Shown here piece by piece: positions 1 through 31,892 of a stretch of 64,000 nt of DNA. This DNA is from a virus. Made by a program: the position numbers and the translations under genes. The stretch lies in the IMG/VR virus record IMGVR_UViG_3300009376_000001; one strand, written 5' to 3'. The notes under the pieces are model-generated. The model made no database searches and was not told where the DNA came from. It saw only the letters and a program-made list of their open reading frames with translations. Within the stretch, counting starts at the first letter, position 1, and every line of letters starts with the position of its first letter.

Positions 1-147
1 GAACGGTTCTCAACACTACCTAAACGAGTAGTAATACATGAGCGTAATGAACATTTATTGCCGTATCTCTATTCACATGTACCTGATATAGAAGCAGGAC
101 TTGTACTTAGTACTGCAATATGGGAGATGAAATTTCAAAAACCATGA
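1..147 (+). CDS. Hypothetical protein, 5'-truncated by window edge
   Basis: Frame 1 is open from base 1 (ERFSTLPKRVV...WEMKFQKP*); the TGA overlaps the next ATG (ATGA at 144-147). Confidence 0.6.
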   Translation, partial: ERFSTLPKRVVIHERNEHLLPYLYSHVPDIEAGLVLSTAIWEMKFQKP

Positions 148-494
148 AAGTAGAAGTTTATAAAAATTTACATAAAAATTGTTGGTCAGTACGAGATAGT
201 AAAACAGGTAAAGTCATAGACCACGTTAACTATATACATCTAGATGATGCTACATTCGTAGTTAGGCCAGCAGGACGAGCCAAAGTGTTACAAGAGAAGC
301 GAAAAAATGTTCATGCTTTTATAAAAGGTACAGCATCATTTCTATCGGAACACATAAATAAAGTTCCATATGCAACTCAAATTTACTATGACCCGTATAA
401 ATATGAATCATTTGTATATGCTGACTCAGAAGAACCAATTTTTAAATCTAATGCAGTATATTTAAATAATAAAGGTGAAGTTTATGTCTACTGA
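144..494 (+). CDS. Conserved phage hypothetical protein (KNVHAF-motif family)
   Basis: VYKNLH..CWSVR...F.V..AGR.KVL.EKRKNVHAF pattern recalled from many tailed phages; start moved from 120 to the coupled ATG at 144. Confidence 0.7.
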   Translation: MKVEVYKNLHKNCWSVRDSKTGKVIDHVNYIHLDDATFVVRPAGRAKVLQEKRKNVHAFIKGTASFLSEHINKVPYATQIYYDPYKYESFVYADSEEPIFKSNAVYLNNKGEVYVY

Positions 495-669
495 AAGACT
501 ATCTCAGATAGCATTATATTTAGAAGATATTGTGCAATCGATATCAACACTAGCGGAAGCTATGGATGCGATAGCTAAGGAATATTCGCCTACATATAAA
601 GCACAAATAGAAGCTCAAGAACAAGTTAATTTAGAAAAATGCATGACTAGTCAAGACATTTCGGCATAA
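475..669 (+). CDS. Hypothetical protein
   Basis: ORF in tightly packed + strand run. Confidence 0.55.
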   Translation: MKFMSTERLSQIALYLEDIVQSISTLAEAMDAIAKEYSPTYKAQIEAQEQVNLEKCMTSQDISA

Positions 670-679
670 GGAGAATCAA

Positions 680-895
680 ATGAATAAAACAGGAATAGAG
701 TGGGCTGAAGAATTTGGCGTACAGATTCTAGACCCTGATGGATTTGGAGAACGTATCGAAGATAGACCTCATATGAATGACCTTATGGATATCGCCATGT
801 TCAATAAGTGCATGGCACAATCTTCAGTAGAAGTTAAAGATGAAAATAAATGGCGAAATAGATTAGTCATTGGGCGTACTTATCGTGAACGATAA
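680..895 (+). CDS. Hypothetical phage protein
   Basis: AAGGAG RBS upstream; W...FGVQILDPDG motif. Confidence 0.65.
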   Translation: MNKTGIEWAEEFGVQILDPDGFGERIEDRPHMNDLMDIAMFNKCMAQSSVEVKDENKWRNRLVIGRTYRER

Positions 896-1370
896 AAGAC
901 ATAGTCGAGAACGAATCATAGAGTTACGCCGATTACACCCAGAGATGACCCTAGAGTCCATAGGTAATGACGTAGGAGTATCTAAAGAACGAGTACGCCA
1001 AGTCTTAGTACAAGAAAATTTACCTACCGTATCAAAAGGTAGGAGTTCAACAAAGATTAAAAACCCTCTACCTTGTGCAGAATGCGGAACTCTTGATAAG
1101 CAATTTATTACTAAACATTCTCTCTATTGTAGTACGACATGTATCACTAAGGCCCGTGATAAATATTGGATTAGATTTCATAATGAAAATCCAGACCGTC
1201 GTACTACCTATCAATGTGAGTACTGTGGGCTAGAAAAGACAATGCGTACCGGACTGTATCAACGACAAGTTAATACATTTAAAAATATATATTGCAGTCA
1301 TTCTTGTTCCTTAAAAGCACAATGGGATGATAAAGATTCAGCGATACGCAATCAACGACCTACTACTTGA
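870..1370 (+). CDS. Sigma70 region-4-like HTH protein with Cys-rich Zn-binding repeats
   Basis: MTLESIGNDVGVSKERVRQVL HTH; CxxC...YCSxxC repeated twice; paralog of 5042-5494. Confidence 0.75.
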   Translation: MGVLIVNDKRHSRERIIELRRLHPEMTLESIGNDVGVSKERVRQVLVQENLPTVSKGRSSTKIKNPLPCAECGTLDKQFITKHSLYCSTTCITKARDKYWIRFHNENPDRRTTYQCEYCGLEKTMRTGLYQRQVNTFKNIYCSHSCSLKAQWDDKDSAIRNQRPTT

Positions 1371-1395
1371 CTTAACGTAAGATATATGTTATACT
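1367..1395 (+). promoter_or_regulatory. Sigma70-type promoter
   Basis: TTGACT(1367-1372)-N17-TATACT(1390-1395) with extended -10 TG. Confidence 0.8.
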
Positions 1396-1414
1396 AACAA
1401 AGTAAAGTGAACTG

Positions 1415-1708
1415 ATGCATGAATCAATAGCAGACAATCCATATGACGGTATAGTACAAGGCTTAATCTTAGCGTATGAAATGACTTACATTAGGTTAAA
1501 GCATGCAGAAAAACCTGCGGTGGAACATTTTAGTCCTATTTCAAATCGATATGTTCCACCTCCGACTTATGAAACTATCAAAGAAGTAATTAGCATAGTT
1601 AAAACACTTGCTCACAATGTGACTAGAGAAGATTTCATAAGAGCCGAAGTAGAAGCACAACTTACATGTGGATTGGACTCAGATTTCATTCATTGGAAAC
1701 AAAATTAA
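1415..1708 (+). CDS. Hypothetical protein
   Basis: First ORF downstream of promoter. Confidence 0.6.
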   Translation: MHESIADNPYDGIVQGLILAYEMTYIRLKHAEKPAVEHFSPISNRYVPPPTYETIKEVISIVKTLAHNVTREDFIRAEVEAQLTCGLDSDFIHWKQN

Positions 1709-1729
1709 TCAAATACACAGGAGAATCAT

Positions 1730-2116
1730 ATGATAGATACTAGTCTTTGTTTAACGTGCGGAACTGATACTTTATTTTATGGGTATGTAAATCGAATACC
1801 GTCTTTCCGAACTAATATAGAAGGATATATGTGCGGTGGTTGTGCTGAAAGCGGGTATCCTGATTATGAATGTCCAAAGGGAGATGACTGTCCTATATAC
1901 CAGGAAACTGGTGACTGCGAATGTGAAGAACTTAGTGAATTTAGCTTTGAAGCATTCGATGAATTTTGGGAAATTCATGTTCCAGTAATAGATAAATACT
2001 TTCCACAGTCTCCGATATTTAGAGATATGATGGATAACGAAGAGAATTGGACTACTGAAGAATGTACGACAGTACAAAATCTTATAAATAATTATAGAAA
2101 ATCTGAAATAGCGTAA
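1730..2116 (+). CDS. Cys-rich (Zn-binding) acidic hypothetical protein
   Basis: AGGAG RBS; CLTC, CGGC and further Cys clusters. Confidence 0.65.
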   Translation: MIDTSLCLTCGTDTLFYGYVNRIPSFRTNIEGYMCGGCAESGYPDYECPKGDDCPIYQETGDCECEELSEFSFEAFDEFWEIHVPVIDKYFPQSPIFRDMMDNEENWTTEECTTVQNLINNYRKSEIA

Positions 2117-2124
2117 GGAAAATA

Positions 2125-3396
2125 ATGACTAAAACATTTTGTGAACTATTTGCTGGCGTAGGTGGCTTCCGTCTAGGACTAGAAGCAACAGGCTGGGAAG
2201 CCGTATATTCTAATCAATATGAACCATCTACTCAAACTCAACACGCATCTAACATATATACATATAATTTTGGAGAAAAAGGACATTCGAACATAGATAT
2301 TGCCAAAGTAGATACTAATGATATACCAGACCATACGCTATTAGTAGGAGGATTCCCTTGCCAAGATTATAGCGTTGCCAAGCCTCTAGTATATTCCAAC
2401 GGTATTCAAGGTAAAAAAGGTGTACTCTGGTGGGAAATAGTTAGACTTATAGAAGAAAAACGTCCACCCTTCATACTATTAGAAAATGTTAACCGTTTAT
2501 TGGTATCTCCAGCTAATGCACGTGGACGAGATTTTGCAGTGATACTGTCCTGCTTAGAATGGTTTGGTTATATAGTTGAATGGCGAGTAATTAATGCTGC
2601 TGACTATGGATACCCACAACGCCGTAAGCGCATATTCATCATGGCTTATCAGCCGTTTAAGGATGCTTCAGTAGTTAATATCGATACCATAACAGATGGA
2701 ATCCTAGGACAAGCCTTTCCGTGTAATGTAATTGCTGATACGCCTTCATACTATATTGGGACTGAGAAAATCGGCGGTGAAGGTCTGGAAAAAGACTTTG
2801 CTACGTATATCCATTCAGTATCGGAAGCATGGGATAAGATGGCTCATAGAATCTCACCCTTCAAAGATGCAGGAGTTTTCTATAGCGGTGTGATGTATAC
2901 GGCTAAAACCGAACCTGTTTATGGGGGACTAAAGCAAACCTTAGGTGATGTTCTTATAGATGAAAAGGATGTTCCAGAAGAATTCTTCTTGAATGACCTA
3001 GCTAAATGGGAATATCTAAAAGGTGCAAAAAACGAACCACGTACTAGTAAATATACTGGACATCAGTATACGTATCAGGAAGGGGCGATAGCATTTCCTG
3101 ACTCACCTGATAAGCCATCTAGGACTATAATTACAGGAGAGGGCGGTGGTTCTCCTTCTCGTAATAAGCATGTTGTACAAACGCCATCAGGACGGTATCG
3201 TAGATTAACTCCTGTAGAATTAGAACGTCTAAATGGATTTCCTGATGAATGGACAAATATAGATAATATGTCAAATAATAAACGTGCTTTCGTTATGGGT
3301 AATGCATTAGTAGTAGGACTTATCGCTCATATAGGAAAGGTAATAGATAGGGTTATAGATGAATTAGAAACTAAAAAGGTAGCAATACATGCGTAA
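2125..3396 (+). CDS. C5-cytosine DNA methyltransferase, M.Sau3AI-like (probable GATC specificity)
   Basis: ELFAGVGG (motif I), GGFPCQDYS (IV), ENV (VI), QRRKR (VIII), GNA (X); NQYEPS..QHA, GIQGKKGVLWW and SP...RGRDFAV segments match the Sau3AI methylase subfamily as recalled. Confidence 0.92.
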   Translation: MTKTFCELFAGVGGFRLGLEATGWEAVYSNQYEPSTQTQHASNIYTYNFGEKGHSNIDIAKVDTNDIPDHTLLVGGFPCQDYSVAKPLVYSNGIQGKKGVLWWEIVRLIEEKRPPFILLENVNRLLVSPANARGRDFAVILSCLEWFGYIVEWRVINAADYGYPQRRKRIFIMAYQPFKDASVVNIDTITDGILGQAFPCNVIADTPSYYIGTEKIGGEGLEKDFATYIHSVSEAWDKMAHRISPFKDAGVFYSGVMYTAKTEPVYGGLKQTLGDVLIDEKDVPEEFFLNDLAKWEYLKGAKNEPRTSKYTGHQYTYQEGAIAFPDSPDKPSRTIITGEGGGSPSRNKHVVQTPSGRYRRLTPVELERLNGFPDEWTNIDNMSNNKRAFVMGNALVVGLIAHIGKVIDRVIDELETKKVAIHA

Positions 3397-3595
3397 AATA
3401 CTCAATCCTGTCTTTGACGAGATTCAAATACGAGCCATATGTCCATATCCACATGAAAACGAAATATGCTTAGAATGTGATGGTACAGAGTATATTAATC
3501 GTTGGGTTAGTATTCATGATTTATTGCATCAAGTAACACTGGATAACATGCCTGTAAATTTACAATGGCATCCACCACTTATCAATGAACAATAG
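3389..3595 (+). CDS. Small Zn-finger protein
   Basis: CLECDG..YI.RWVS; similar to 4545-4760. Confidence 0.55.
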   Translation: MRKILNPVFDEIQIRAICPYPHENEICLECDGTEYINRWVSIHDLLHQVTLDNMPVNLQWHPPLINEQ

Positions 3596-3603
3596 GTAAT
3601 AAT

Positions 3604-4017
3604 ATGCAGTATTTTCTTAATGAAAAGGGCATAGACCCTCCAAGAATGCGAGTTCTTATCTGCGGAGATAGGAATTATAAGGATTGGATGAAAGTGCGGG
3701 AATATCTAGATACGATTTCTCGTACTACCATTATCATTCATGGCGGAGCAAAAGGGGCTGATAGTATAGCTGGAAATTTAGGTAAATATTTAAATATGAA
3801 AGTTATAAAATATTCAGCAGATTGGGATAAGTATGGAAACGCAGCAGGAATATTACGTAATCAACAAATGCTTGATGAAGAACATCCAGACCTTATAGTG
3901 TATTTTCATAAAGATTTGGAAAATAGTAAAGGCACTAAAGATATGGTAACACGTGCTATTAATAATAAAATTGAAGTAATTAATGGAGAAACAGGAGAAC
4001 CTTATGGCACTATATAA
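3604..4017 (+). CDS. SLOG-superfamily (DUF2493/YspA-like) protein
   Basis: RVLICGDRNY...IIHGGAKGADSIA...ADWDKYG.AAG.LRNQQM...SKGTKDM. Confidence 0.85.
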   Translation: MQYFLNEKGIDPPRMRVLICGDRNYKDWMKVREYLDTISRTTIIIHGGAKGADSIAGNLGKYLNMKVIKYSADWDKYGNAAGILRNQQMLDEEHPDLIVYFHKDLENSKGTKDMVTRAINNKIEVINGETGEPYGTI

Positions 4018-4249
4018 GATTAATGGACATTACATTACATACGTTGAAGGGTACGTTGAAGCTGAATCGGTTGGCGAAGCCCGAAACAAGGCTAAACATG
4101 GTAGGCAATGGAAAACATCTCCTAGCGAACTACCGATTCATGAATTGGCAGTAGACTATGCATTACAGGTAAATGAGATTCGTAGTTCTACACTGTTAAA
4201 GACTAAGGTACATCCCTCCTTTAGCAAAGGAAGTAATGGACACACATGA
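3983..4249 (+). CDS. Hypothetical protein (true start probably ATG ~4004)
   Basis: AGGAG upstream of MALYKING; VEAES..EA motif. Confidence 0.55.
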   Translation: MEKQENLMALYKINGHYITYVEGYVEAESVGEARNKAKHGRQWKTSPSELPIHELAVDYALQVNEIRSSTLLKTKVHPSFSKGSNGHT

Positions 4250-4517
4250 ATTAGATGACATGCCTTCTGACATCTATTTCTGGATTAATGATGAAATAGA
4301 TGGCGGATATCTAGACCCATTTATTCAGTATTATCGAAATAAAGCTAAAGCCCGAAGTGTGGAAGAGCATCAAGAAATTTTCAAGAATAAAGAAGATTTT
4401 ATTAATGGCTTTACACTAGCAATTGCTTATTTACACCATGAAAGATTCACATTAGAAGAACTACGATGGGTACGTATTGCGATGTCGGTAGCGTTAGCTA
4501 GGGCATTGACTTCATAA
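4236..4517 (+). CDS. Hypothetical protein
   Basis: AAGGA RBS, operon packing. Confidence 0.6.
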   Translation: MDTHELDDMPSDIYFWINDEIDGGYLDPFIQYYRNKAKARSVEEHQEIFKNKEDFINGFTLAIAYLHHERFTLEELRWVRIAMSVALARALTS

Positions 4518-4534
4518 TTTACTCATGGTATACT
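4506..4534 (+). promoter_or_regulatory. Sigma70-type promoter
   Basis: TTGACT-N17-TATACT with TG extension. Confidence 0.8.
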
Positions 4535-4544
4535 AGGAGCATAT

Positions 4545-4760
4545 ATGGATGTATTAATACGAGACAGATGTTGGGATTGTTTTGGATTAGAAATAAGTTG
4601 CTCCATTTGTAATGATACAGGCATGATTGAAAAATGGATTTCCTTAATGGAATTAGTCAATGAACTTGAAAAAGCTAATCCGCCCGAATTAACGATAGAT
4701 GAAACTATCCCATTTATGACTATGAATGATTTAGACGATACACCAAATGTAAATATTTAG
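4545..4760 (+). CDS. Small Zn-finger protein
   Basis: CWDC, CSICNDTG..KWIS; AGGAG RBS. Confidence 0.6.
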   Translation: MDVLIRDRCWDCFGLEISCSICNDTGMIEKWISLMELVNELEKANPPELTIDETIPFMTMNDLDDTPNVNI

Positions 4761-4769
4761 GAGAAACTA

Positions 4770-5042
4770 ATGGCAATACAAGTTTATAAAGTAAATCTCA
4801 CAGGATATGTGATACGCAATACGGATATTATGGATGACCCTAATAATATTGATTTCGATACGGTCATCGCAATGACGTTAGATAATCAACATGAATGCAC
4901 AATAGATTTAATTGATTCTACAGGTGATATGGGCTGTGATTGCACCGAATGTACCTGTGGAGCAAAGACTCAATCTACTCCTCTTATGGTCAATCTAGGA
5001 GAGCCTGGAGAATCTGCCAATACAACAGTTGAGGCTTTTTAA
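4770..5042 (+). CDS. Hypothetical protein with CxCxxCxC motif
   Basis: AGGAG RBS; GCDCTECTCG. Confidence 0.6.
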   Translation: MAIQVYKVNLTGYVIRNTDIMDDPNNIDFDTVIAMTLDNQHECTIDLIDSTGDMGCDCTECTCGAKTQSTPLMVNLGEPGESANTTVEAF

Positions 5043-5494
5043 TGAGTTACACGAATGATTGGGTAATAACTCATAAAAATTGGACACCTACTCGTTCTCA
5101 GATTACAGAACTTAGAAAGAATAATCCTAATATGACTCTACAAGAGATAGGAGAGACAGTAGGCGTATCTAGAGAACGTGTCAGACAAATATTACATAGC
5201 GAACAATTAGAAACACGTTCCGTAGATAGAATTCCAGTTCCTATGCCATTATGCAAAACCTGTAATAATCCTGTTCCTTTACGAAAACGTATATACTGTA
5301 GTGCAGAATGTCAACGACCTGAGGGCAAAACTACCCTTAATTGTCATTATTGTAATAAAGAAATAACAGTTATGTCCTCTATTTATAGAGCTAGAACTAA
5401 AAGAGCCACTAATGTACACTGTAGTAGAGTCTGTCGAGATGCTACTAGGCGAGGAAAACCTAGAATAAGGTATAATTTAGAGCATAATGACTGA
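5042..5494 (+). CDS. Sigma70 region-4-like HTH protein with Cys-rich Zn-binding repeats
   Basis: MTLQEIGETVGVSRERVRQIL; CxxC..YCSxxC repeats; paralog of 870-1370. Confidence 0.75.
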   Translation: MSYTNDWVITHKNWTPTRSQITELRKNNPNMTLQEIGETVGVSRERVRQILHSEQLETRSVDRIPVPMPLCKTCNNPVPLRKRIYCSAECQRPEGKTTLNCHYCNKEITVMSSIYRARTKRATNVHCSRVCRDATRRGKPRIRYNLEHND

Positions 5495-5945
5495 AGAACA
5501 ATTAATTAAAGGCATGGAAGTCGCTGCAAAACGTGGTGCTCAGTACAATATTGAAGTTTTATCCGATGAATTAATTCCTACATTAATGGTATTAACTGAA
5601 AATAATAGAGTAGAAGTAGCCCATATAGAGGCTCCTAAAGATGAATTAGCCAGTGCAATTAAAGGCTGGCTAATTAAGAGACAAGCTAAAGCGTATCTAT
5701 TAATACTAGAAGCTTGGTCTACTACGTTTGTAGACAAAGCCGTAGATGTGTACGAGGGGCGTGTAGCGAATATGCCTCTTGATGATAGATTTGAAGTAAC
5801 CAACCTTATTATGGTTAAAAAGAATCAAGGTATTACCAAATATTTATCTGCCAGAATAGATACAAAAACGGACGGTAGTCGCAAACTTAGGAGTTGGGAA
5901 AAGGGAAATGTACAAGAAACAAGGATTTGTGTAACTGAGTGGTGA
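5487..5945 (+). CDS. Hypothetical protein
   Basis: ORF overlapping neighbours; YLLILEAW motif. Confidence 0.6.
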   Translation: MTEEQLIKGMEVAAKRGAQYNIEVLSDELIPTLMVLTENNRVEVAHIEAPKDELASAIKGWLIKRQAKAYLLILEAWSTTFVDKAVDVYEGRVANMPLDDRFEVTNLIMVKKNQGITKYLSARIDTKTDGSRKLRSWEKGNVQETRICVTEW

Positions 5946-6223
5946 TTCATATGCCCACTGGCGAAGATTATCGATTTTTATATGTTATGTTATATAACAT
6001 GGGAAGGGGGTATCACGTAGGAAAGGAAAATGAAACACGGACTATGCAACAGCTATTACTTGAAGAAGAATATGAAATCATTTATGAACCTACAAGTGAC
6101 AGAGATATTGTTGTAGGAAAGAAAGACGACCAGCTTATAGGCATAGCTGACCTTTGGGGGCCGTGGGCTATTAATCTCAGTGAGAGAGTAGACCGTCCTT
6201 CTTTTCCAGATATTAGCAGTTAG
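5939..6223 (+). CDS. Hypothetical protein
   Basis: Packed ORF; C-terminal GPWA. Confidence 0.55.
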   Translation: MVIHMPTGEDYRFLYVMLYNMGRGYHVGKENETRTMQQLLLEEEYEIIYEPTSDRDIVVGKKDDQLIGIADLWGPWAINLSERVDRPSFPDISS

Positions 6224-6234
6224 AAGGTATCAAA

Positions 6235-6417
6235 ATGTTTAAATGGCTAATTAATTTGTTAGCAGATAAAAAACAAGAAACTACTACACCTCGCATAATT
6301 CCTAATGAGTCAGTCCGTCCGAAGGAGACTCCTAGCACCTCTACACGAACTACTAGAGTAACTAAAGGAATAGTGGAAGTTTCTAGAAAAACTAAACGAA
6401 CTATTCGTAATCCTTAA
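6235..6417 (+). CDS. Small basic hypothetical protein
   Basis: AAGG RBS; amphipathic N-terminus. Confidence 0.5.
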   Translation: MFKWLINLLADKKQETTTPRIIPNESVRPKETPSTSTRTTRVTKGIVEVSRKTKRTIRNP

Positions 6418-6433
6418 ACATATGTAGAGTGTA

Positions 6434-6631
6434 ATGGCTAAATGTGATATCCCTACATGCTCAAACGAAGCAGTAGATACAATTAAAGAATTAGCTATTT
6501 CAGTATGTGATTGGCATTCATATGCTCACCATAACGAAATAGGTTGGTTGGGAAAACTCGATGAAGATGACGTTAAAAATACTATTCCAAAAATAAAAGA
6601 TGAAGGCGATGTGCTACGTAACAATGAATGA
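6434..6631 (+). CDS. Small Zn-binding hypothetical protein
   Basis: CDIPTC...CDWH. Confidence 0.55.
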   Translation: MAKCDIPTCSNEAVDTIKELAISVCDWHSYAHHNEIGWLGKLDEDDVKNTIPKIKDEGDVLRNNE

Positions 6632-6968
6632 AGAAACTCACTTAGATAACAATGGAATAAATATTTGGAAATTACCTGATTATCTACAGAATTGCCCTAA
6701 ATGTCATGGTAGTGGTGAAGTTAATACCGAATTACTTCCTTATGAAGATGAGTACCGAGAGAATGCAGGTACATGGGAAGATAGTACTCCCAAATGTCTA
6801 TACTGTAATGGTGCCGGATATGTAGAACGAGAACTCGATACTCAATGGGAAGCTTTAGGCATTACTCCTCAACAAGCTATCGAGGATTGGGATACAGCCC
6901 TAAAAGAAAACTTTGGTGAAGATGTCCTTAAACAAGTACAGGAGATAAGGAAACAACAAGGGTCTTGA
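6600..6968 (+). CDS. DnaJ-type CxxCxGxG Zn-finger protein
   Basis: CPKCHGSG and CLYCNGAG. Confidence 0.65.
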   Translation: MKAMCYVTMNEETHLDNNGINIWKLPDYLQNCPKCHGSGEVNTELLPYEDEYRENAGTWEDSTPKCLYCNGAGYVERELDTQWEALGITPQQAIEDWDTALKENFGEDVLKQVQEIRKQQGS

Positions 6969-6993
6969 CTTCAATAGATTTATATGGTATAAT
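6965..6993 (+). promoter_or_regulatory. Sigma70-type promoter
   Basis: TTGACT-N17-TATAAT with TG extension. Confidence 0.85.
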
Positions 6994-7022
6994 ATTACAA
7001 AAGGTTAAGGAAGAGGTATAAA

Positions 7023-7787
7023 ATGCCCAAAGGAACTCTATCATGGAAAGGTTTTCCCTCTAATGGATTAATAGTTGTTGAGGGACAACGAGGACAAGGT
7101 AAAACTTCTCTAGCTTGGTACATAGCAGAACTTAAACGTGCCGATAAACGTGGGAAACGAGTAATCGCATTTGGTATGCCAGACGTAGCACGAAAAGCAC
7201 TACCGAAATGGATTTCCCATATGAATACGTTGGAAGAAGTCTCAATGGCTAAGCCCTCAATTATAGTAATTGATGAGGCTGCTTTCACTGCTAACTCTAG
7301 ACGAGCAATGCAAGAAACTAATATAGAGTGGCTTAAATTAATTGCTATCTGCCGACACAAAGACCATCTGCTAATCTTTGTTAGCCAGCATAACCGTCAA
7401 CTAGACGTTCAAATACTTGCAGACGCTGACTTGGTAATCATGAAGAAGCCTTCTCTGCTTCATCTACGATTTACTAGACCTGAATTTAAACCAGAACTAG
7501 AAACAGCATATGAAGAATTCCAAGCAATAAAGGGCGATACACGAAAATGGGCTTATGTAGTGGACTATCATAATGGCAATGCCAAAATGCTACGATGTCA
7601 ACTACCCAAATTCTGGTCTGACCGTATCTCTAAAGCCTACGCTGAGATGTCTATAGGCATAGTAGATACAAAATCAATGAACTTGGAACTTCCTAATGGC
7701 ATAGAAGAAAAAGTTTCCGCATATGCTAATCAAACTGAAGCTCCGAAACGAGGCCGTGGTAGGCCACGCAAACAGTCAGCACAATAA
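7023..7787 (+). CDS. P-loop ATPase with C-terminal AT-hook
   Basis: Walker A GQRGQGKT, Walker B IVIDEA, sensor-like RH...VSQ; C-terminal KRGRGRPRK. Confidence 0.8.
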   Translation: MPKGTLSWKGFPSNGLIVVEGQRGQGKTSLAWYIAELKRADKRGKRVIAFGMPDVARKALPKWISHMNTLEEVSMAKPSIIVIDEAAFTANSRRAMQETNIEWLKLIAICRHKDHLLIFVSQHNRQLDVQILADADLVIMKKPSLLHLRFTRPEFKPELETAYEEFQAIKGDTRKWAYVVDYHNGNAKMLRCQLPKFWSDRISKAYAEMSIGIVDTKSMNLELPNGIEEKVSAYANQTEAPKRGRGRPRKQSAQ

Positions 7788-7807
7788 AAAGATACCTATA
7801 TGACAAT

Positions 7808-7848
7808 AAAGCCTCGTATTTGGCTTCTCAGAGCCAGTATGAGGCTTT
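7808..7848 (+). terminator. Imperfect stem-loop after ATPase (possible terminator)
   Basis: AAAGCCTC...TGGCT-loop-AGCCA...GAGGCTTT followed by a short T tract. Confidence 0.45.
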
Positions 7849-7997
7849 TAATCATGTGACCTGATAGTAACCTGTGACCTGAATGAACCATTGCATCGCT
7901 TAGTATCAATGAAATAGAGTGAATCATGTTTGCGTAGAGTACCTCTTTAAAGGAATAAATCAATATACTAGATAATTACATATACCCTGAATGAGCC

Positions 7998-9668
7998 ATG
8001 TTAGTTAAATTTCCATATAACAAAGAATTAATCGAAGAGATTAAACAAATACCTGGCAGGAAATATGACCCTAATGAAAAGGGTTGGGATATTCCTGACC
8101 AGTTTTTACCTATGGCTGCAAACATGATTCAGGAATATTATCCAAATATTGCTGATATTGTTAGAGATTTCCACACACTCACTAATCCCAAACCCGACTT
8201 AGGTAATATTGCTACCGCAAAAGACATCGAAGAATTAGATGTAAAGTACAGTCAAAGAGCAGTACAAGATATTAAAGACCGCTTACAAACTCCATATGAT
8301 TTATATGCGTATCAAGAAATAGCTGTAGCGTTCTTAGAATCTCGTATACAAGATGGTAAAGGAGCATTGATAGGTGACCAACCAGGACTAGGTAAAACTA
8401 TAGAAACCCTAGCTTGGTTATCATTAAATTCTTCTAAACTTCCCGCCTTAGTAATTACTCAAGCATCTATTAAACGTAACTGGTATAGAGAAGTAGAAAA
8501 GTGGCTACCTACTGCTAACGTACAAATGCTCGACCAAGGTAAAGACGTTTTAGATACCAATGCAGATATAGTCATAATAAATTATGATCTTATATGGCGG
8601 AAAGGGATTGAAGAACAACTTCTTAAACGTAAATTCCCTGTAGTTGTTTATGACGAAGTGACATCTATTAAAGAATCCTCAGCTAAAAGAACTAAATCTG
8701 CGAAGAAATTAGGACGTAGAGCAGAATTCACTATTGGTTTATCTGGCACACCTATACTAAACAGACCTATAGAATTTTATAATATATTGAATTTAATAGA
8801 ACCAAAGCAATTTAGTTCCCAATTTAAATTCGGTATGCGGTATTGTAATGGGTACCATAATGGATTTGGTTATGTATTTAAGGGTTCTTCTCGTACAGAT
8901 GAACTGAGAGAACAGATACAACCTTTAATGATACGTAGACTGAAGGATGATGTACTAACGGAACTGCCTGCTAAGAGTCGTAGAACCATATTCATAGACA
9001 TGCCAGGTAAGTATTATCAGGATTATGTCGCTGCTGAAAATAATTTAGTAGAGACTCTTAGAAGTTTGCCATCAGGTAAAGTTTCTAATGAATACGAAGA
9101 AAGTCGAATGTGGCTTCTATCCAAACTTAATTACTTACGTCACATAGTAGGACTGTCTAAAGCAGAAGAAGCTCAAGCTATAATCAAGAATTTCGTAGAT
9201 GCAGGAGAAAAATTAGTGGTCTTTGCTCACCATCATGATGTCATAGACTTAATGGATGAATATCTGACTAAAGATAAGATTTCTCACGTAGCCGTAGATG
9301 GACGTACAGCAGGACCTAATAGACAAGAAGCTATAGATAAATTTCAAACAGATCCAGATTGTATGGTTTTTGTTGCATCCACAGCTATGGGAATGGGCGT
9401 AACATTGACTGCAGCATCCAATGCATTATTTGTAGAACGACAATGGACTCCAGGTATAGAAGAACAGATGGAAGACCGTCTACATAGGATTGGACAAACT
9501 AATGCCGTACTTGTCCATTATATGCAAGTAGAAGGCAGCTTAGACGAAAAAATGGATAAATTGGTAGAGAATAAACGAATAATATTGGATGAAGTTTTGG
9601 ATGGGGAAAAGAAACGAGATAAAGGTGAAAGCGTTATCAACGAATTATTAGCAGAATTAGCTAGATGA
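7998..9668 (+). CDS. SNF2-family (SMARCAL1/HARP-like) helicase
   Basis: N-terminal HARP-like FPYN...IPGRKYD...W; GDQPGLGKT, YDE, LSGTPILNRP, IRRLK, QMEDRLHRIGQ. Confidence 0.9.
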   Translation: MLVKFPYNKELIEEIKQIPGRKYDPNEKGWDIPDQFLPMAANMIQEYYPNIADIVRDFHTLTNPKPDLGNIATAKDIEELDVKYSQRAVQDIKDRLQTPYDLYAYQEIAVAFLESRIQDGKGALIGDQPGLGKTIETLAWLSLNSSKLPALVITQASIKRNWYREVEKWLPTANVQMLDQGKDVLDTNADIVIINYDLIWRKGIEEQLLKRKFPVVVYDEVTSIKESSAKRTKSAKKLGRRAEFTIGLSGTPILNRPIEFYNILNLIEPKQFSSQFKFGMRYCNGYHNGFGYVFKGSSRTDELREQIQPLMIRRLKDDVLTELPAKSRRTIFIDMPGKYYQDYVAAENNLVETLRSLPSGKVSNEYEESRMWLLSKLNYLRHIVGLSKAEEAQAIIKNFVDAGEKLVVFAHHHDVIDLMDEYLTKDKISHVAVDGRTAGPNRQEAIDKFQTDPDCMVFVASTAMGMGVTLTAASNALFVERQWTPGIEEQMEDRLHRIGQTNAVLVHYMQVEGSLDEKMDKLVENKRIILDEVLDGEKKRDKGESVINELLAELAR

Positions 9669-9922: not shown

Positions 9923-9960
9923 AAAAAAACCCCAGTCTTTATGACTGGGGTTTTCTTTTT
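9923..9960. terminator. Bidirectional intrinsic terminator between convergent arms
   Basis: AAAACCCCAGTC-TTTAT-GACTGGGGTTTT perfect stem flanked by A-run and T-run. Confidence 0.9.
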
Positions 9961-15878: not shown

Positions 15879-15908
15879 AGTATAACATAAAATACTACTA
15901 TAAGTCAA
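15879..15908 (-). promoter_or_regulatory. Sigma70-type promoter
   Basis: Reverse complement TTGACT-N18-TATACT with TG extension. Confidence 0.75.
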
Positions 15909-28189: not shown

Positions 28190-28219
28190 ATTATACCCTA
28201 AATACTATTCCGAAGTCAA
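28190..28219 (-). promoter_or_regulatory. Sigma70-type promoter for acidic protein-thyX
   Basis: Reverse complement TTGACT-N18-TATAAT. Confidence 0.75.
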
Positions 28220-28348
28220 TACTTTTCGGGCTTCTCGTCGTTCTTTTCTACGCTTATCGGCATCACATGGGCCACACAATGCAGGCAAATATCGCTTTGA
28301 CTGCTTACGTCCACACTTCTGACACTTCTTCCAGCTTGTAGGAGCCAC
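28205..28348 (-). CDS. 47-aa basic Zn-finger protein, not in ORF track
   Basis: GTG overlapping topoisomerase stop (TAGTG): MAPTSWKKCQKCGRKQSKRYLPALCGPCDADKRRKERREARKVLTSE*. Confidence 0.6.
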   Translation of the reverse strand: MAPTSWKKCQKCGRKQSKRYLPALCGPCDADKRRKERREARKVLTSE

Positions 28349-30339
28349 TATTTCTTCTTCCTCTTAACAGGTTTACGCTTGCCTTTGGCTTTAACCGGAG
28401 CCTTATCTTTATTCTTTAACTTTTGCTGAGCAACTTTAACATCAGCTGCAGGGAACCTAGAACGTAATAGCTTATCTACATCCCCATCAAATGAAATATC
28501 CCAATCTTTAAAAACTTGAGGATCAATATATTGAGCTACACAAACTTGTTTAGTATTACTTAATTGGTCTGAAATAGGCTCACCAATTACATCTAATTTA
28601 AGTTTATTACGTTCTTTTAATGCCCATAAAAAAGCTTCTTCTTTCCACTCTTGGGCATTAGTAATAGCTCCGTTATTAACCCGTCGCTTCATGAAAGCAT
28701 CAAATTTCTTTCTATCTAACTTAGGTATCTTAGTCTTCGACACTAAATCGGCTGCTAATCGAGTAGCATGATAAGTACGGAAGTTCTTTACACTAAAATC
28801 ACCATCCGCTGCTTGCTTTAAATAAGCATTAACCGCAGGAGGACTAACATTTAGCACCGTAGCTGTCTTATCTTTACCTGCTGCTTTACGGCGAGCAATC
28901 AATTCATTCTTAACTAATGGGTCAGTAACTTCCACATTATTTAATTTACCGGATTTACCTAAGAAATTAAGATAAACTTTCTTACCTTTAATTATTATAT
29001 GCTGCGCCTGAAAGCTAGTTACTCCAAAAGTAGAAACATATTCTCGTATAAACTTGCCATCTTTATCTTTTTTAGGGCCAGGTCGTCCTTCTTCTCCGTC
29101 CCAAACAACTTTAGATTCACCACTACCGACTCGACGATAAGTATTATGAATCAGAGCAAGAGCTAATGCTGCTTCTTTATTACGTCCGTTATTCTGGATA
29201 TCTTGTTTACAACTCTTTTCAATACGAGAGATACTTTTAGCTAATTTTTTAATCTTCTCAAATTTCTTAATAGCTTGACCTTTAGTATGCTCTACACTGT
29301 AGCCAGCATGTTGTCGTCCTTTACCATCAATCCAAGCTACTTGAACCTTATCATCTGAATCGGTACTAAAGAATAAGTGCTGCTTGCCTCCACGGTCAGG
29401 ATTCTCTGGGTCAAACTCCTGAACGGCCTGTAATTGTCCGTCAGCGGTGGTTATATTAACCACTTTACCGTCTTCATTAACTACCGCTATATTAGGAGTA
29501 ATAGGAGTTGCATCTGTTTGTGGGCCTTTTCCTTCCAAGGCTGCCTGTCTAACTAATTCTTTTTTCTGGTCTACAGAAATTTTAGGTAATGTTTGAATTA
29601 AGTCATCTAATGGACGGAAGCCCTGTTCTTTCATTTTTGCAATAAAAGATTCAGCATCAATCTTATCGCCAATAATGCCTTGCCCTTCATTCTCGTCTTC
29701 ATCGTCATCTACGTTTTCATCAACATTTACCATTCCAACGTCTTCAGGAGCTTGTACACCTTCAATAGGTCGAGCAGCTTCTGGCTCTAAAGGACGCTCT
29801 AGTGTACCTAATTTGCCTATCTCAGAAGGAAAATATCCTCGTGCTCCACGACGAGTTGTGTGTACTTGTGTATTCTCTGGAGGTTTTTCACCAGAGCCTA
29901 AGTATTCTAATCGCTCTCCCCGTTCTGCTTTAACTAAATATTCTAAAGCAGTCTCAAGTACTAATAACTTCGATAAATCCGCACTCTTTTGTATATCAGA
30001 ATTAGTTAATTTATCTACTTGCTCATCCGTAATAAAGTACGCACGGAATACGGGATTCTGAAAGCGAGTATATGTCTGATATAAAAAGAATCCATCAGAC
30101 ATCTTGCCTTCTTCATCCGACATGCTAAGGTCTGTTCCTAGTTGCTTGGAATGCTCTTTAAAGAAAGCATCACCACTAGCTTGTAGACGTTCTCGTAGGC
30201 TTTTATCTACCCAAGATATATGATTCTCTGCCTTGGAAATGGAACGAGCGATTTCATCCGGCTCTTTAGATAGAATCTTACGAGAAGGCAAGACAATATA
30301 AGCTAAGTCTTTTTGGTTATATATAGTAACAGCAGGCAT
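28348..30339 (-). CDS. DNA topoisomerase IB (bacterial/poxviral type) fused to N-terminal extra domains
   Basis: RRVGS(R), FGVTS, FLGKSGK(K), KNFRTYHAT(R), LSNT..VC..QYIDP(N,Y) catalytic pentad; start reassigned to ATG 30339 (TAATG coupling). Confidence 0.88.
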   Translation of the reverse strand: MPAVTIYNQKDLAYIVLPSRKILSKEPDEIARSISKAENHISWVDKSLRERLQASGDAFFKEHSKQLGTDLSMSDEEGKMSDGFFLYQTYTRFQNPVFRAYFITDEQVDKLTNSDIQKSADLSKLLVLETALEYLVKAERGERLEYLGSGEKPPENTQVHTTRRGARGYFPSEIGKLGTLERPLEPEAARPIEGVQAPEDVGMVNVDENVDDDEDENEGQGIIGDKIDAESFIAKMKEQGFRPLDDLIQTLPKISVDQKKELVRQAALEGKGPQTDATPITPNIAVVNEDGKVVNITTADGQLQAVQEFDPENPDRGGKQHLFFSTDSDDKVQVAWIDGKGRQHAGYSVEHTKGQAIKKFEKIKKLAKSISRIEKSCKQDIQNNGRNKEAALALALIHNTYRRVGSGESKVVWDGEEGRPGPKKDKDGKFIREYVSTFGVTSFQAQHIIIKGKKVYLNFLGKSGKLNNVEVTDPLVKNELIARRKAAGKDKTATVLNVSPPAVNAYLKQAADGDFSVKNFRTYHATRLAADLVSKTKIPKLDRKKFDAFMKRRVNNGAITNAQEWKEEAFLWALKERNKLKLDVIGEPISDQLSNTKQVCVAQYIDPQVFKDWDISFDGDVDKLLRSRFPAADVKVAQQKLKNKDKAPVKAKGKRKPVKRKKK
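29815..29985 (-). repeat. Duplicated 57-codon leader/module, copy 2
   Basis: SADLSKLLVLETALEYLVKA...TQVHTTRRGARGYFPSEIG; 40/57 aa identical to copy 1. Confidence 0.9.
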
Positions 30340-31892
30340 TAACGACGTACTCCTTGTCTTGGCCCACCCTGTAGATGTGCAGGAGTATCGCCACCCCATC
30401 CCATTTCTCCATCATCTACCGGATCTGCACCTTTCCAATCCCTATTTCGATCCCTATCTCCAGGCTGGGAACTAACAGGGAAGCTTTCCCACCCAAATCC
30501 ATCAGGGGAGAATGGGGTTGAACCATAACCATAGCCTGCTCTTCCGCTAACAGCATCTCCCATTAATCGATTAACTTGGATTGTATATAAATTTTTAAAC
30601 CTATCGATATCTAAATTATCTGCTTCCCAATTAACTGCGCCTAAAGCAGCAGAGAGAGTATCTTCATCAAAATATTTATCAAATACATCTAGAGCTTCTT
30701 GTTCTAATCCGGTACGAATTTGTATCTTTTCTTCGTCCGTAAGAAGCTCATCCAAATGATCCCTATATCTATAAGGAAAATCTAAGCCAACATCTCTAGA
30801 AATTTCATGTAATTCGATATGTGCTGTTCGATCATGAGGGAAAGAATGAGCCATACGTCCCGCAAATCCATTATCAATAGCTAAAATCTTATGATCAGCT
30901 GTAATCATATAATTACCAGTATGCCTATCAGGATTACCTGTAATAGCATCTAATAATATAAGTTTAAGAAATTCTTCTCGCCCCTCTTTACTAGCTAACA
31001 TTTCAGCAACAGCCGAAATAGAATCATCTCTAGAAAGACAATTTTCACAAAACTCTTGAAAATGTCCGGCAGCCTGAGAACCTAAAGAATTCTCTTTTAT
31101 CTTATCGACTTCGGCTCTATCCAACCCACCTGGATCACCCCATTCGTCAACAGATGTCCCATGATCAGGATGAGTATCCGTAAATACTTTCAATAACCGC
31201 TCAGGATCTATCGAATGCGGTTGTACATACGGAACTAAATTCAACCCCAACGCTCTATCAACACTATATGCAAGCATCTCAGACCTGTTATCGCCTTTAT
31301 CATGAGAAGCTTTAAATATAAACTTTTTACCTGCTACTTCAACAGTAAAATTAGCATATGAAGTGATTCCCAGACCTGAATCCGTCGCTGAACCTTCATC
31401 TGAACCATCGGTAAATCCCGCTTTAGTTAAATTCTCAGAGGTTAAATCCGCAGGATCAATAGAACTTCCTAAGAATGGCTGATGTTCCCCAATAGCGTCC
31501 CTTAAATCCGCATACATATTTTCAAATTGGGCATTAACTTGCTCTCTAGTTGCCCAAGCCGAATCTCTCGTATCATCAGAGGAACTATCAGGAGTAACTA
31601 CTTCAATCTCTCGTTCTTCTTCAGGCAACTCAGCTAAGCGACGGACTTCTTCACGAATACCTTCTTCTGTATCAGGCGGTATAGTAAGTCTATCTAATGC
31701 GTCATCTATTTCTGTAGTGCCAACTTCAGAGGGATAATATCCACGAGCACCACGACGAGTAGTATGCACCTGTGTATCTTCTGGAGGACGTTGAGTAGGA
31801 CTAAGATACTCAAGTTTCTCCCCAGGTGTAGCTTTCAACAGATGCTCTAATACCGTCTCAAGAGTTAAAAGTTTTGTTAAATCGGTAGACAT
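30339..31892 (-). CDS. PI3/PI4-kinase-like (HipA-related) kinase with N-terminal leader module
   Basis: GLGIT...FIFK...SEMLAYSVDRALGLNLVP...HFQEF...DAITGNPDRHTGNYM...AIDNGFA. Confidence 0.85.
   Translation of the reverse strand: MSTDLTKLLTLETVLEHLLKATPGEKLEYLSPTQRPPEDTQVHTTRRGARGYYPSEVGTTEIDDALDRLTIPPDTEEGIREEVRRLAELPEEEREIEVVTPDSSSDDTRDSAWATREQVNAQFENMYADLRDAIGEHQPFLGSSIDPADLTSENLTKAGFTDGSDEGSATDSGLGITSYANFTVEVAGKKFIFKASHDKGDNRSEMLAYSVDRALGLNLVPYVQPHSIDPERLLKVFTDTHPDHGTSVDEWGDPGGLDRAEVDKIKENSLGSQAAGHFQEFCENCLSRDDSISAVAEMLASKEGREEFLKLILLDAITGNPDRHTGNYMITADHKILAIDNGFAGRMAHSFPHDRTAHIELHEISRDVGLDFPYRYRDHLDELLTDEEKIQIRTGLEQEALDVFDKYFDEDTLSAALGAVNWEADNLDIDRFKNLYTIQVNRLMGDAVSGRAGYGYGSTPFSPDGFGWESFPVSSQPGDRDRNRDWKGADPVDDGEMGWGGDTPAHLQGGPRQGVRR
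31719..31889 (-). repeat. Duplicated 57-codon leader/module, copy 1
   Basis: STDLTKLLTLETVLEHLLKA...TQVHTTRRGARGYYPSEVG. Confidence 0.9.

Follow-up and report, generated by a model that had tools for sequence, protein, structure and literature searches.

A GATC-free early-type arm encoding a GATC-family methylase in an uncultured marine phage

Here, we describe a 64,000-nucleotide stretch of the IMG/VR virus record IMGVR_UViG_3300009376_000001 (the window), whose left end is a block of small genes that lacks the tetranucleotide GATC and encodes an orphan DNA methyltransferase (methylase) of a GATC family (Table 1). All genes from 120 to ~9944 lie on the + strand and all those from 9975 to 64000 on the - strand, with the switch at ~9950. 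The + arm encodes small proteins without assigned function, a homologue of mycobacteriophage L5 gp82, a SLOG-domain protein, an AAA-type ATPase, the methylase and an SNF2 helicase. Among the genes of the - arm, those for the portal, the large terminase, ribonucleotide reductase and DNA polymerase were identified. Below, the genes of the block are called early and those of the - arm late. Searches with PHROGs and Pfam found no known anti-restriction proteins among the small early proteins, and megablast of positions 1-9000 against the phage collection returned no match.

Table 1. Positions of the GATC-free block and of other features in the window
Feature	Position	Strand	Remarks
GATC-free block, ~20 small early-type genes	1-7787	+	cut by the window start; relatives are syntenic and extend upstream
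Promoter-like site, sigma-70 type	1367-1395	+	TTGACTT, 17-nt spacer, TG-extended TATACT
Orphan C5-cytosine DNA methyltransferase, 423 aa, Sau3AI/Mhy3 (GATC) family	2125-3396	+	PF00145, E = 6e-64; TIGR00675
Promoter-like site 2	4506-4534	+	same sigma-70 type as 1367-1395
Promoter-like site 3	6965-6993	+	same sigma-70 type as 1367-1395
Hairpin, then a short T run; probable terminator	7807-7849	+	3' border of the GATC-free block
Four 36-nt units	7856-7997	+	variable part, AGTAYC, variable part, GAATGAATCA; between the hairpin and the helicase gene
SNF2-family helicase gene	7998-9668	+	Pfam SNF2-rel_dom and Helicase_C
Terminator-like hairpin where the + and - arms converge	9926-9954	.	12-pair stem, then T run
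Replication, packaging and virion genes	9975-64000	-	115 GATC, partly and unevenly depleted
Further copies of the promoter pattern in the - arm	15879-15908, 28190-28219	-	

A direct count placed no GATC in positions 1-8585, the first site at 8586 and 118 sites in 8586-64000 (55.4 kb), in agreement with a first-pass annotation that had scanned the DNA by eye. The number of sites expected in 1-8585 is 23.7 by a maximal-order Markov estimate, 28.2 by base composition and 18.3 by the density of the remaining window. Other figures of that annotation were close as well: 1-8585 contains 118 ATC trinucleotides (about 100 had been given), plus 184 GAT, and 21 GATC (about 20) lie between 10 and 20 kb. 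When early and late DNA were contrasted for 2530 words of 4-6 bases, GATC ranked first (binomial p = 4e-8), and the ranks just below it were occupied by 5-mers containing GATC. The other 4-bp palindromes are at normal frequency in 1-8585, except CGCG, GCGC and CCGG, which are low window-wide. A general loss of palindromes, which the annotation itself had proposed to check, was thus rejected, and the avoidance is specific to GATC. A strand effect was likewise rejected: GATC reads the same on both strands, and the + arm itself regains sites further on. What did not hold is the description of the remainder as GATC-rich: the remaining 55 kb carry 118 sites where ~200 are expected (observed/expected 0.53-0.59), i.e., they are depleted about two-fold.

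Codon choice at synonymous positions follows the same pattern. In the genes of 1-7787, aspartate (Asp) before a codon starting with C is encoded by GAT in no case and by GAC in 16, in comparison to 108 GAT and 29 GAC (79% GAT) among the remaining Asp codons. Similarly, none of the 27 isoleucine codons that follow a G-ending codon in the early genes is ATC, against 28 of 162 elsewhere. We also permuted synonymous codons while keeping the proteins and the codon usage. Such shuffles gave 21.4 +/- 3.3 GATC in the early genes (minimum 12 among 1000), where none is observed, and 6.4 in the helicase gene, whose 2 sites indicate an intermediate avoidance. For the minus-strand genes the shuffles gave 209 +/- 9.5 coding sites against 110 observed, and Asp before C is there encoded as GAT 88 : GAC 70, versus 799:184 for other Asp. 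Comparison of the early and minus-strand shuffles shows, therefore, that avoidance is about two-fold genome-wide and complete in the early block. Neither base composition nor amino-acid content can be its cause, given the Markov figures, the counts of Asp and isoleucine codons by context, and the shuffles. GATC avoidance in the window is thus specific, kept by selection, and stronger in the early block than in the remaining DNA. Across the late genes (9975-64000) avoidance is uneven from gene to gene, which suggests that histories or pressures differ per gene. As an example of two neighbours, Asp before C is GAT 9 : GAC 0 in 30339-31892 and GAT 1 : GAC 6 in 28348-30399.

The purge is retained in close relatives, i.e., contigs from other metagenomes that are syntenic with positions 120-9668 and encode a methylase 75-83% identical to that of the window. 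GATC occurs 8 times against 85 expected in 21 kb of L023, twice against 46 in 11.3 kb of L025, 6 times against 49 in 12.7 kb of L024, and twice against 31 in 9.2 kb of L022. In the pooled early genes of seven relatives, Asp before C is encoded as GAT 6 : GAC 103, versus 809:237 for other Asp (p = 3e-52). Since the early proteins of the relatives are only 45-90% identical to those of the window, it can be concluded that the site-free state is actively maintained and not just inherited. The early genes common to the relatives contain 2 GATC in 34.3 kb and the inserts absent from the window contain 8 in 10 kb, as expected if new genes bring GATC with them and are purged later. An insertion hot spot of ~1.5 kb, which the window lacks, was seen in L022, L023, L024 and L026 between the homologues of 5939-6223 and 6434-6631; most early-arm GATC of the relatives are located there. 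Both sites of the helicase gene, at 8586 (+588) and 9351 (+1353), are shared in position with L023 and L024.

Upstream of the gp82-like gene, L023 and L025 carry a further 5-9 kb of + strand genes that are nearly GATC-free; among their products are an AAA protein of 520 aa and a protein with DUF3150. The GATC-poor arm of L023 reaches at least 17 kb. As this arm continues upstream in both relatives, the window start does not mark the true end of the block and the arm is longer than the annotation gave it, so that the interval 1-8585 named in the annotation is correct as a GATC-free stretch, while its left limit is simply the edge of the window. In G002, another close relative, the late region (44.8 kb) matches that of the window with ~2 GATC per kb.

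The methylase has intact motifs I (FxGxG), IV (PCQ), VI (ENV), VIII (QxRxR) and X, which are invariant in an alignment with homologues that have a nuclease partner. No gene for a partner nuclease of the Sau3AI or BglII type was found in the 64-kb window. We recovered 84 more distant homologues (42-56% identity) together with their flanking DNA. At least 51 of these 84 adjoin a nuclease gene, 31 of the Sau3AI type (double MutH; for example, the 508-aa nuclease of L017 with two MutH domains) and 20 of the BglII/BstYI type; many of the other loci have flanks too short to judge. In a 93-row FastTree phylogeny, a node of 55 rows (support 95) with 22 Sau3AI-linked and 12 BglII-linked members contains both the window clade (support 99) and its sister clade (98), and the two partner types are intermixed across the tree, even among close neighbours. 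This mixture, with the phage clade nested inside it, fits a single shared GATC-core specificity. The target-recognition domain (TRD) of the window enzyme can be aligned over its full length and is 28-38% identical to that of partnered members; among the Sau3AI-partnered members themselves the identity lies in the same range (24-34%). A methylase of M. hyorhinis that adjoins a Sau3AI-type nuclease is 42% identical to the window enzyme. The same arrangement has been described for Mhy3/End3, and Mhy3 was shown experimentally to be a GATC-specific methylase producing 5-methylcytosine (m5C) that clusters with M.Sau3AI (PMC4636357, PMC13736764). The window enzyme shares with M.Sau3AI and Mhy3 the Pfam family, the catalytic motifs, the alignable TRD and the tree position; they, however, belong to type II systems, whereas the window methylase is a phage orphan with a clade-specific insert in its TRD. 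The nuclease partners of the homologues, the tree, the TRD comparison and the published work on Mhy3 all bear out the assignment to the M.Sau3AI subfamily made in the annotation, and the enzyme most likely methylates GATC.

A second tetranucleotide provides a contrast within the same genome. CGCG occurs 0 times in 1-8585 and 4 times in the rest of the window, against 31-80 expected, and GCGC is also low; in 105 kb of the distantly related phage G001 (L156-L161) CGCG is absent. No CGCG methylase was found in the window. CGCG is thus purged genome-wide, whereas the purge of GATC is confined to the early arm and late DNA tolerates the site. Since one word is removed everywhere and the other is tolerated outside the early arm, this suggests that late DNA is otherwise protected against GATC cutters, with the methylase as the obvious candidate.

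For three lineages, the use of site-forming Asp codons, i.e., GAT where a C follows, was compared with that at all other Asp codons and expressed as an odds ratio. In the window clade it is ~0.02 in early genes and 0.2-0.3 in late genes. The sister clade (helicase 67% and methylase 54% identical to those of the window) has 0.35 early and 0.93 late, and its early arm contains ~3 GATC per kb. For G001 (105 kb, terminase 59% identical) the values are 0.64 early, with 0.13 in one sub-block, and 1.3 late. In this genome, which is 69% complete, the family of the window methylase was not found; it encodes two other C5 methylases that are ~30% identical to that of the window. Stronger avoidance in early than in late genes is therefore a family-wide property, which differs in strength among lineages and is independent of the window methylase.

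Several features of the block bear on when it would act. The window has five copies, where 0.19 are expected, of a strong, near-consensus sigma-70-type pattern with an extended -10 element (TTGACTT, 16-18-nt spacer, TG-extended TATAMT); three copies are in the early block, each in an intergenic gap, and the other two in the - arm. This suggests a host with the standard sigma-70 type of promoter. Its small + strand genes and three predicted promoters give the block the look of an early arm that host RNA polymerase would transcribe, and the idea of early expression put forward in the annotation is supported to this extent. Two paralogous early proteins (870-1370 and 5042-5494) have a sigma-70 region-4 helix-turn-helix domain; loci L001 and L002 are also concerned. 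In the sister clade there are three such copies, and a second, unrelated C5 methylase is encoded immediately upstream of the GATC-family methylase.

The interpretation has to join the absence of the sites, its specificity, the selection behind it, its conservation in relatives and the family of the methylase. We propose, with moderate confidence, that this uncultured marine phage of ~141 kb has its early arm in the block, that host RNA polymerase transcribes it, and that ongoing selection removes GATC from it, so that it escapes nucleases before phage-made protection is available. The early arm would have to work before any such protection exists, and without sites it would be invisible to GATC-reading nucleases. 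The remaining DNA keeps ~2 GATC per kb and would rely on methylation inherited from the preceding cycle, which the early methylase would complete, and/or on protection by other early functions; the same selection is far weaker on this part of the genome. We infer the early timing from the promoters and the gene content. The role of the methylase would be to protect the remaining genome, and the arm may either enter the cell physically first, in the manner of T5, or only be expressed first.

Some points weigh against this interpretation. Fully methylated progeny DNA would shield the early arm too, and the model thus needs incomplete methylation or an added threat. The predicted specificity of the methylase is based on family context. 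The gradient in G001, where the methylase family was not found, means that this methylase is not required for the gradient, and the sister clade, which has the same methylase family, has purged its early arm only mildly. Moreover, the variation of late avoidance per gene indicates that gene flux may contribute as well. A more ambitious version, close to what the annotation had proposed, is a two-tier design in phages of a family not related to T5: the site-free arm would come first, possibly by staged entry, and deliver a GATC methylase that completes the methylation of the rest within the same infection. One chromosome would then be split into a part that lacks sites and a part that is self-methylated. 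We regard this version as plausible but tentative, and of fairly low probability. The selected, GATC-specific avoidance, the GATC-family methylase and the early look of the block are in its favour, but the remainder is not rich in GATC and the gradient is also present in G001.

The same pattern could arise in other ways. If the site-free block were, or lay in, a long direct terminal repeat, its second copy would be made at packaging, escape full methylation and be the first to enter. Such a repeat would agree with the gene order of the relatives, which crosses the contig start, as it would if a repeat had been collapsed or the assembly were circular, and it has precedents in the 9.7-kb repeat that contains the first-step-transfer (FST) genes of T5 and BF23 (PMC10644984) and in the exact 10,778-bp terminal repeat, with ~22 small genes, of the phage Paradiddles. 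The nearest cultured relatives by large terminase are Streptomyces phages of the BE cluster with this repeat of 10.8 kb. The lead is weak, as terminases that share only ~30% identity say little about how DNA is packaged, and the GATC-poor arm of L023 is longer than either of these repeats; we consider this explanation unlikely. Avoidance might also be directed at the phage's own mark, the early arm being kept free of m5C because of methyl-dependent (type IV) nucleases or for the sake of unaffected early transcription. A GATC m5C-family methylase in the same genome, and a purge that is strictest in the clade with this methylase lineage, are what one would expect in that case. It seems improbable, nevertheless, given that the sister clade keeps its early sites with the same methylase family, that early avoidance occurs in G001 although the family was not found there, and that sites are missing throughout coding sequence, beyond the promoters.

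Restriction by the host at GATC could, on the other hand, shape the pattern alone, with the methylase having another motif or purpose and its presence being a coincidence. The low TRD identity to partnered homologues, with specificity read from family context, and the gradient in G001 leave room for this; but TRD divergence is equally large among GATC-partnered members, and the phage clade is nested in a family whose nuclease partners of both types cut a GATC core, which leaves coincidence with little likelihood in our judgement. The least probable explanation is a mosaic history, in which the early arm was imported from, or exchanged with, a lineage lacking GATC altogether while selection acted equally on both arms. 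Early arms are indeed variable and carry accessory inserts, and the degree of avoidance differs among late genes. Yet the early genes of the relatives have diverged considerably in protein sequence and are still site-free at synonymous positions, the sites that do occur are mostly in recent inserts, and the same gradient is seen in three lineages. In its pure form, mosaic history was rejected on the codon-context counts of the relatives and the location of their sites in inserts.

An early arm cleared of sites by selection before protection is available, the interpretation we favour, has counterparts in known phages. T5 and BF23 are restricted only when sites lie in FST DNA (PMC10644984). Their FST region, like the block, consists of ~10 kb of small early genes. 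It is read by the host polymerase and restriction acts only via sites there, as we propose for the block; the rest of their genome has sites and is protected after this part has acted (PMC10644984), as the site-bearing remainder would be here. In the window the T5-type pattern, with sites missing early and present elsewhere, was found for GATC only (0 versus 118). There are differences as well: two-step injection, a terminal repeat and an injection stop are established for T5, whereas the phage described here is known from sequence alone; T5 has no cognate methylase, whereas in this phage the block itself encodes a methylase of the family that fits the avoided site; and the DNA outside the block is partly depleted here as well. 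Murciavirus (Autographiviridae) escapes the type I system Mme2I when its leading region lacks the motif (PMC12455610). There, too, the motif in the first-injected early region decides on sensitivity, and not motifs elsewhere (PMC12455610), although that case concerns a T7-like podovirus, the motif of a type I system and experimental proof, in contrast to a 141-kb phage, a 4-bp type II site and evidence from sequence.

Whole-genome loss of GATC is known from staphylococcal phage K. In Streptomyces phage Paradiddles (NC_042010.1; L142, L143, L165) there is no GATC in the 64 kb examined, where ~206 are expected. Selection against GATC at synonymous sites is common to Paradiddles and the window, but in the former it extends throughout the examined 64 kb and in the latter to completeness only in the early arm. 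With 118 sites in 8586-64000, the window does not belong to the class of wholly GATC-free genomes. Paradiddles is uninformative on avoidance specific to its repeat, as GATC is lacking everywhere in the examined genome.

The block therefore appears to fit, by analogy with T5 and Murciavirus, the published rule that the first-acting phage DNA is protected by lacking sites, and would be a new example of it. It offers a statistically strong case, conserved in relatives, in which the early or leading DNA of a phage, and not the molecule as a whole, reveals the pressure of restriction, and it unites two modes in one genome, with CGCG purged everywhere and GATC in the early arm that encodes a GATC-family methylase. 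Whole-genome site counts can accordingly mislead on restriction escape. We predict that the GATC of the late arm carry m5C in metagenomic methylomes. Were staged entry to be true, the logic known from T5 would also apply to uncultured marine phages of an abundant family.

At the border between the block and the helicase gene, positions 7788-7997 form the longest non-coding gap of the + arm. The final early gene is followed by the hairpin, then the 36-nt units, then the helicase start codon. The hairpin (-30.2 kcal/mol, z = -6.8) is kept in four relatives, with one compensatory pair. The units are exactly spaced, at 7881, 7917, 7953 and 7989, the last one overlapping the helicase ATG, and Tandem Repeats Finder did not detect them, their variable parts being different. 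Units of this kind also occur in L024 (9150-9256), L100 (86-254) and L022 (8864-8962). They may represent a mini guide-RNA array, resembling those of the TIGR type, and look more like such an array than like an injection stop.

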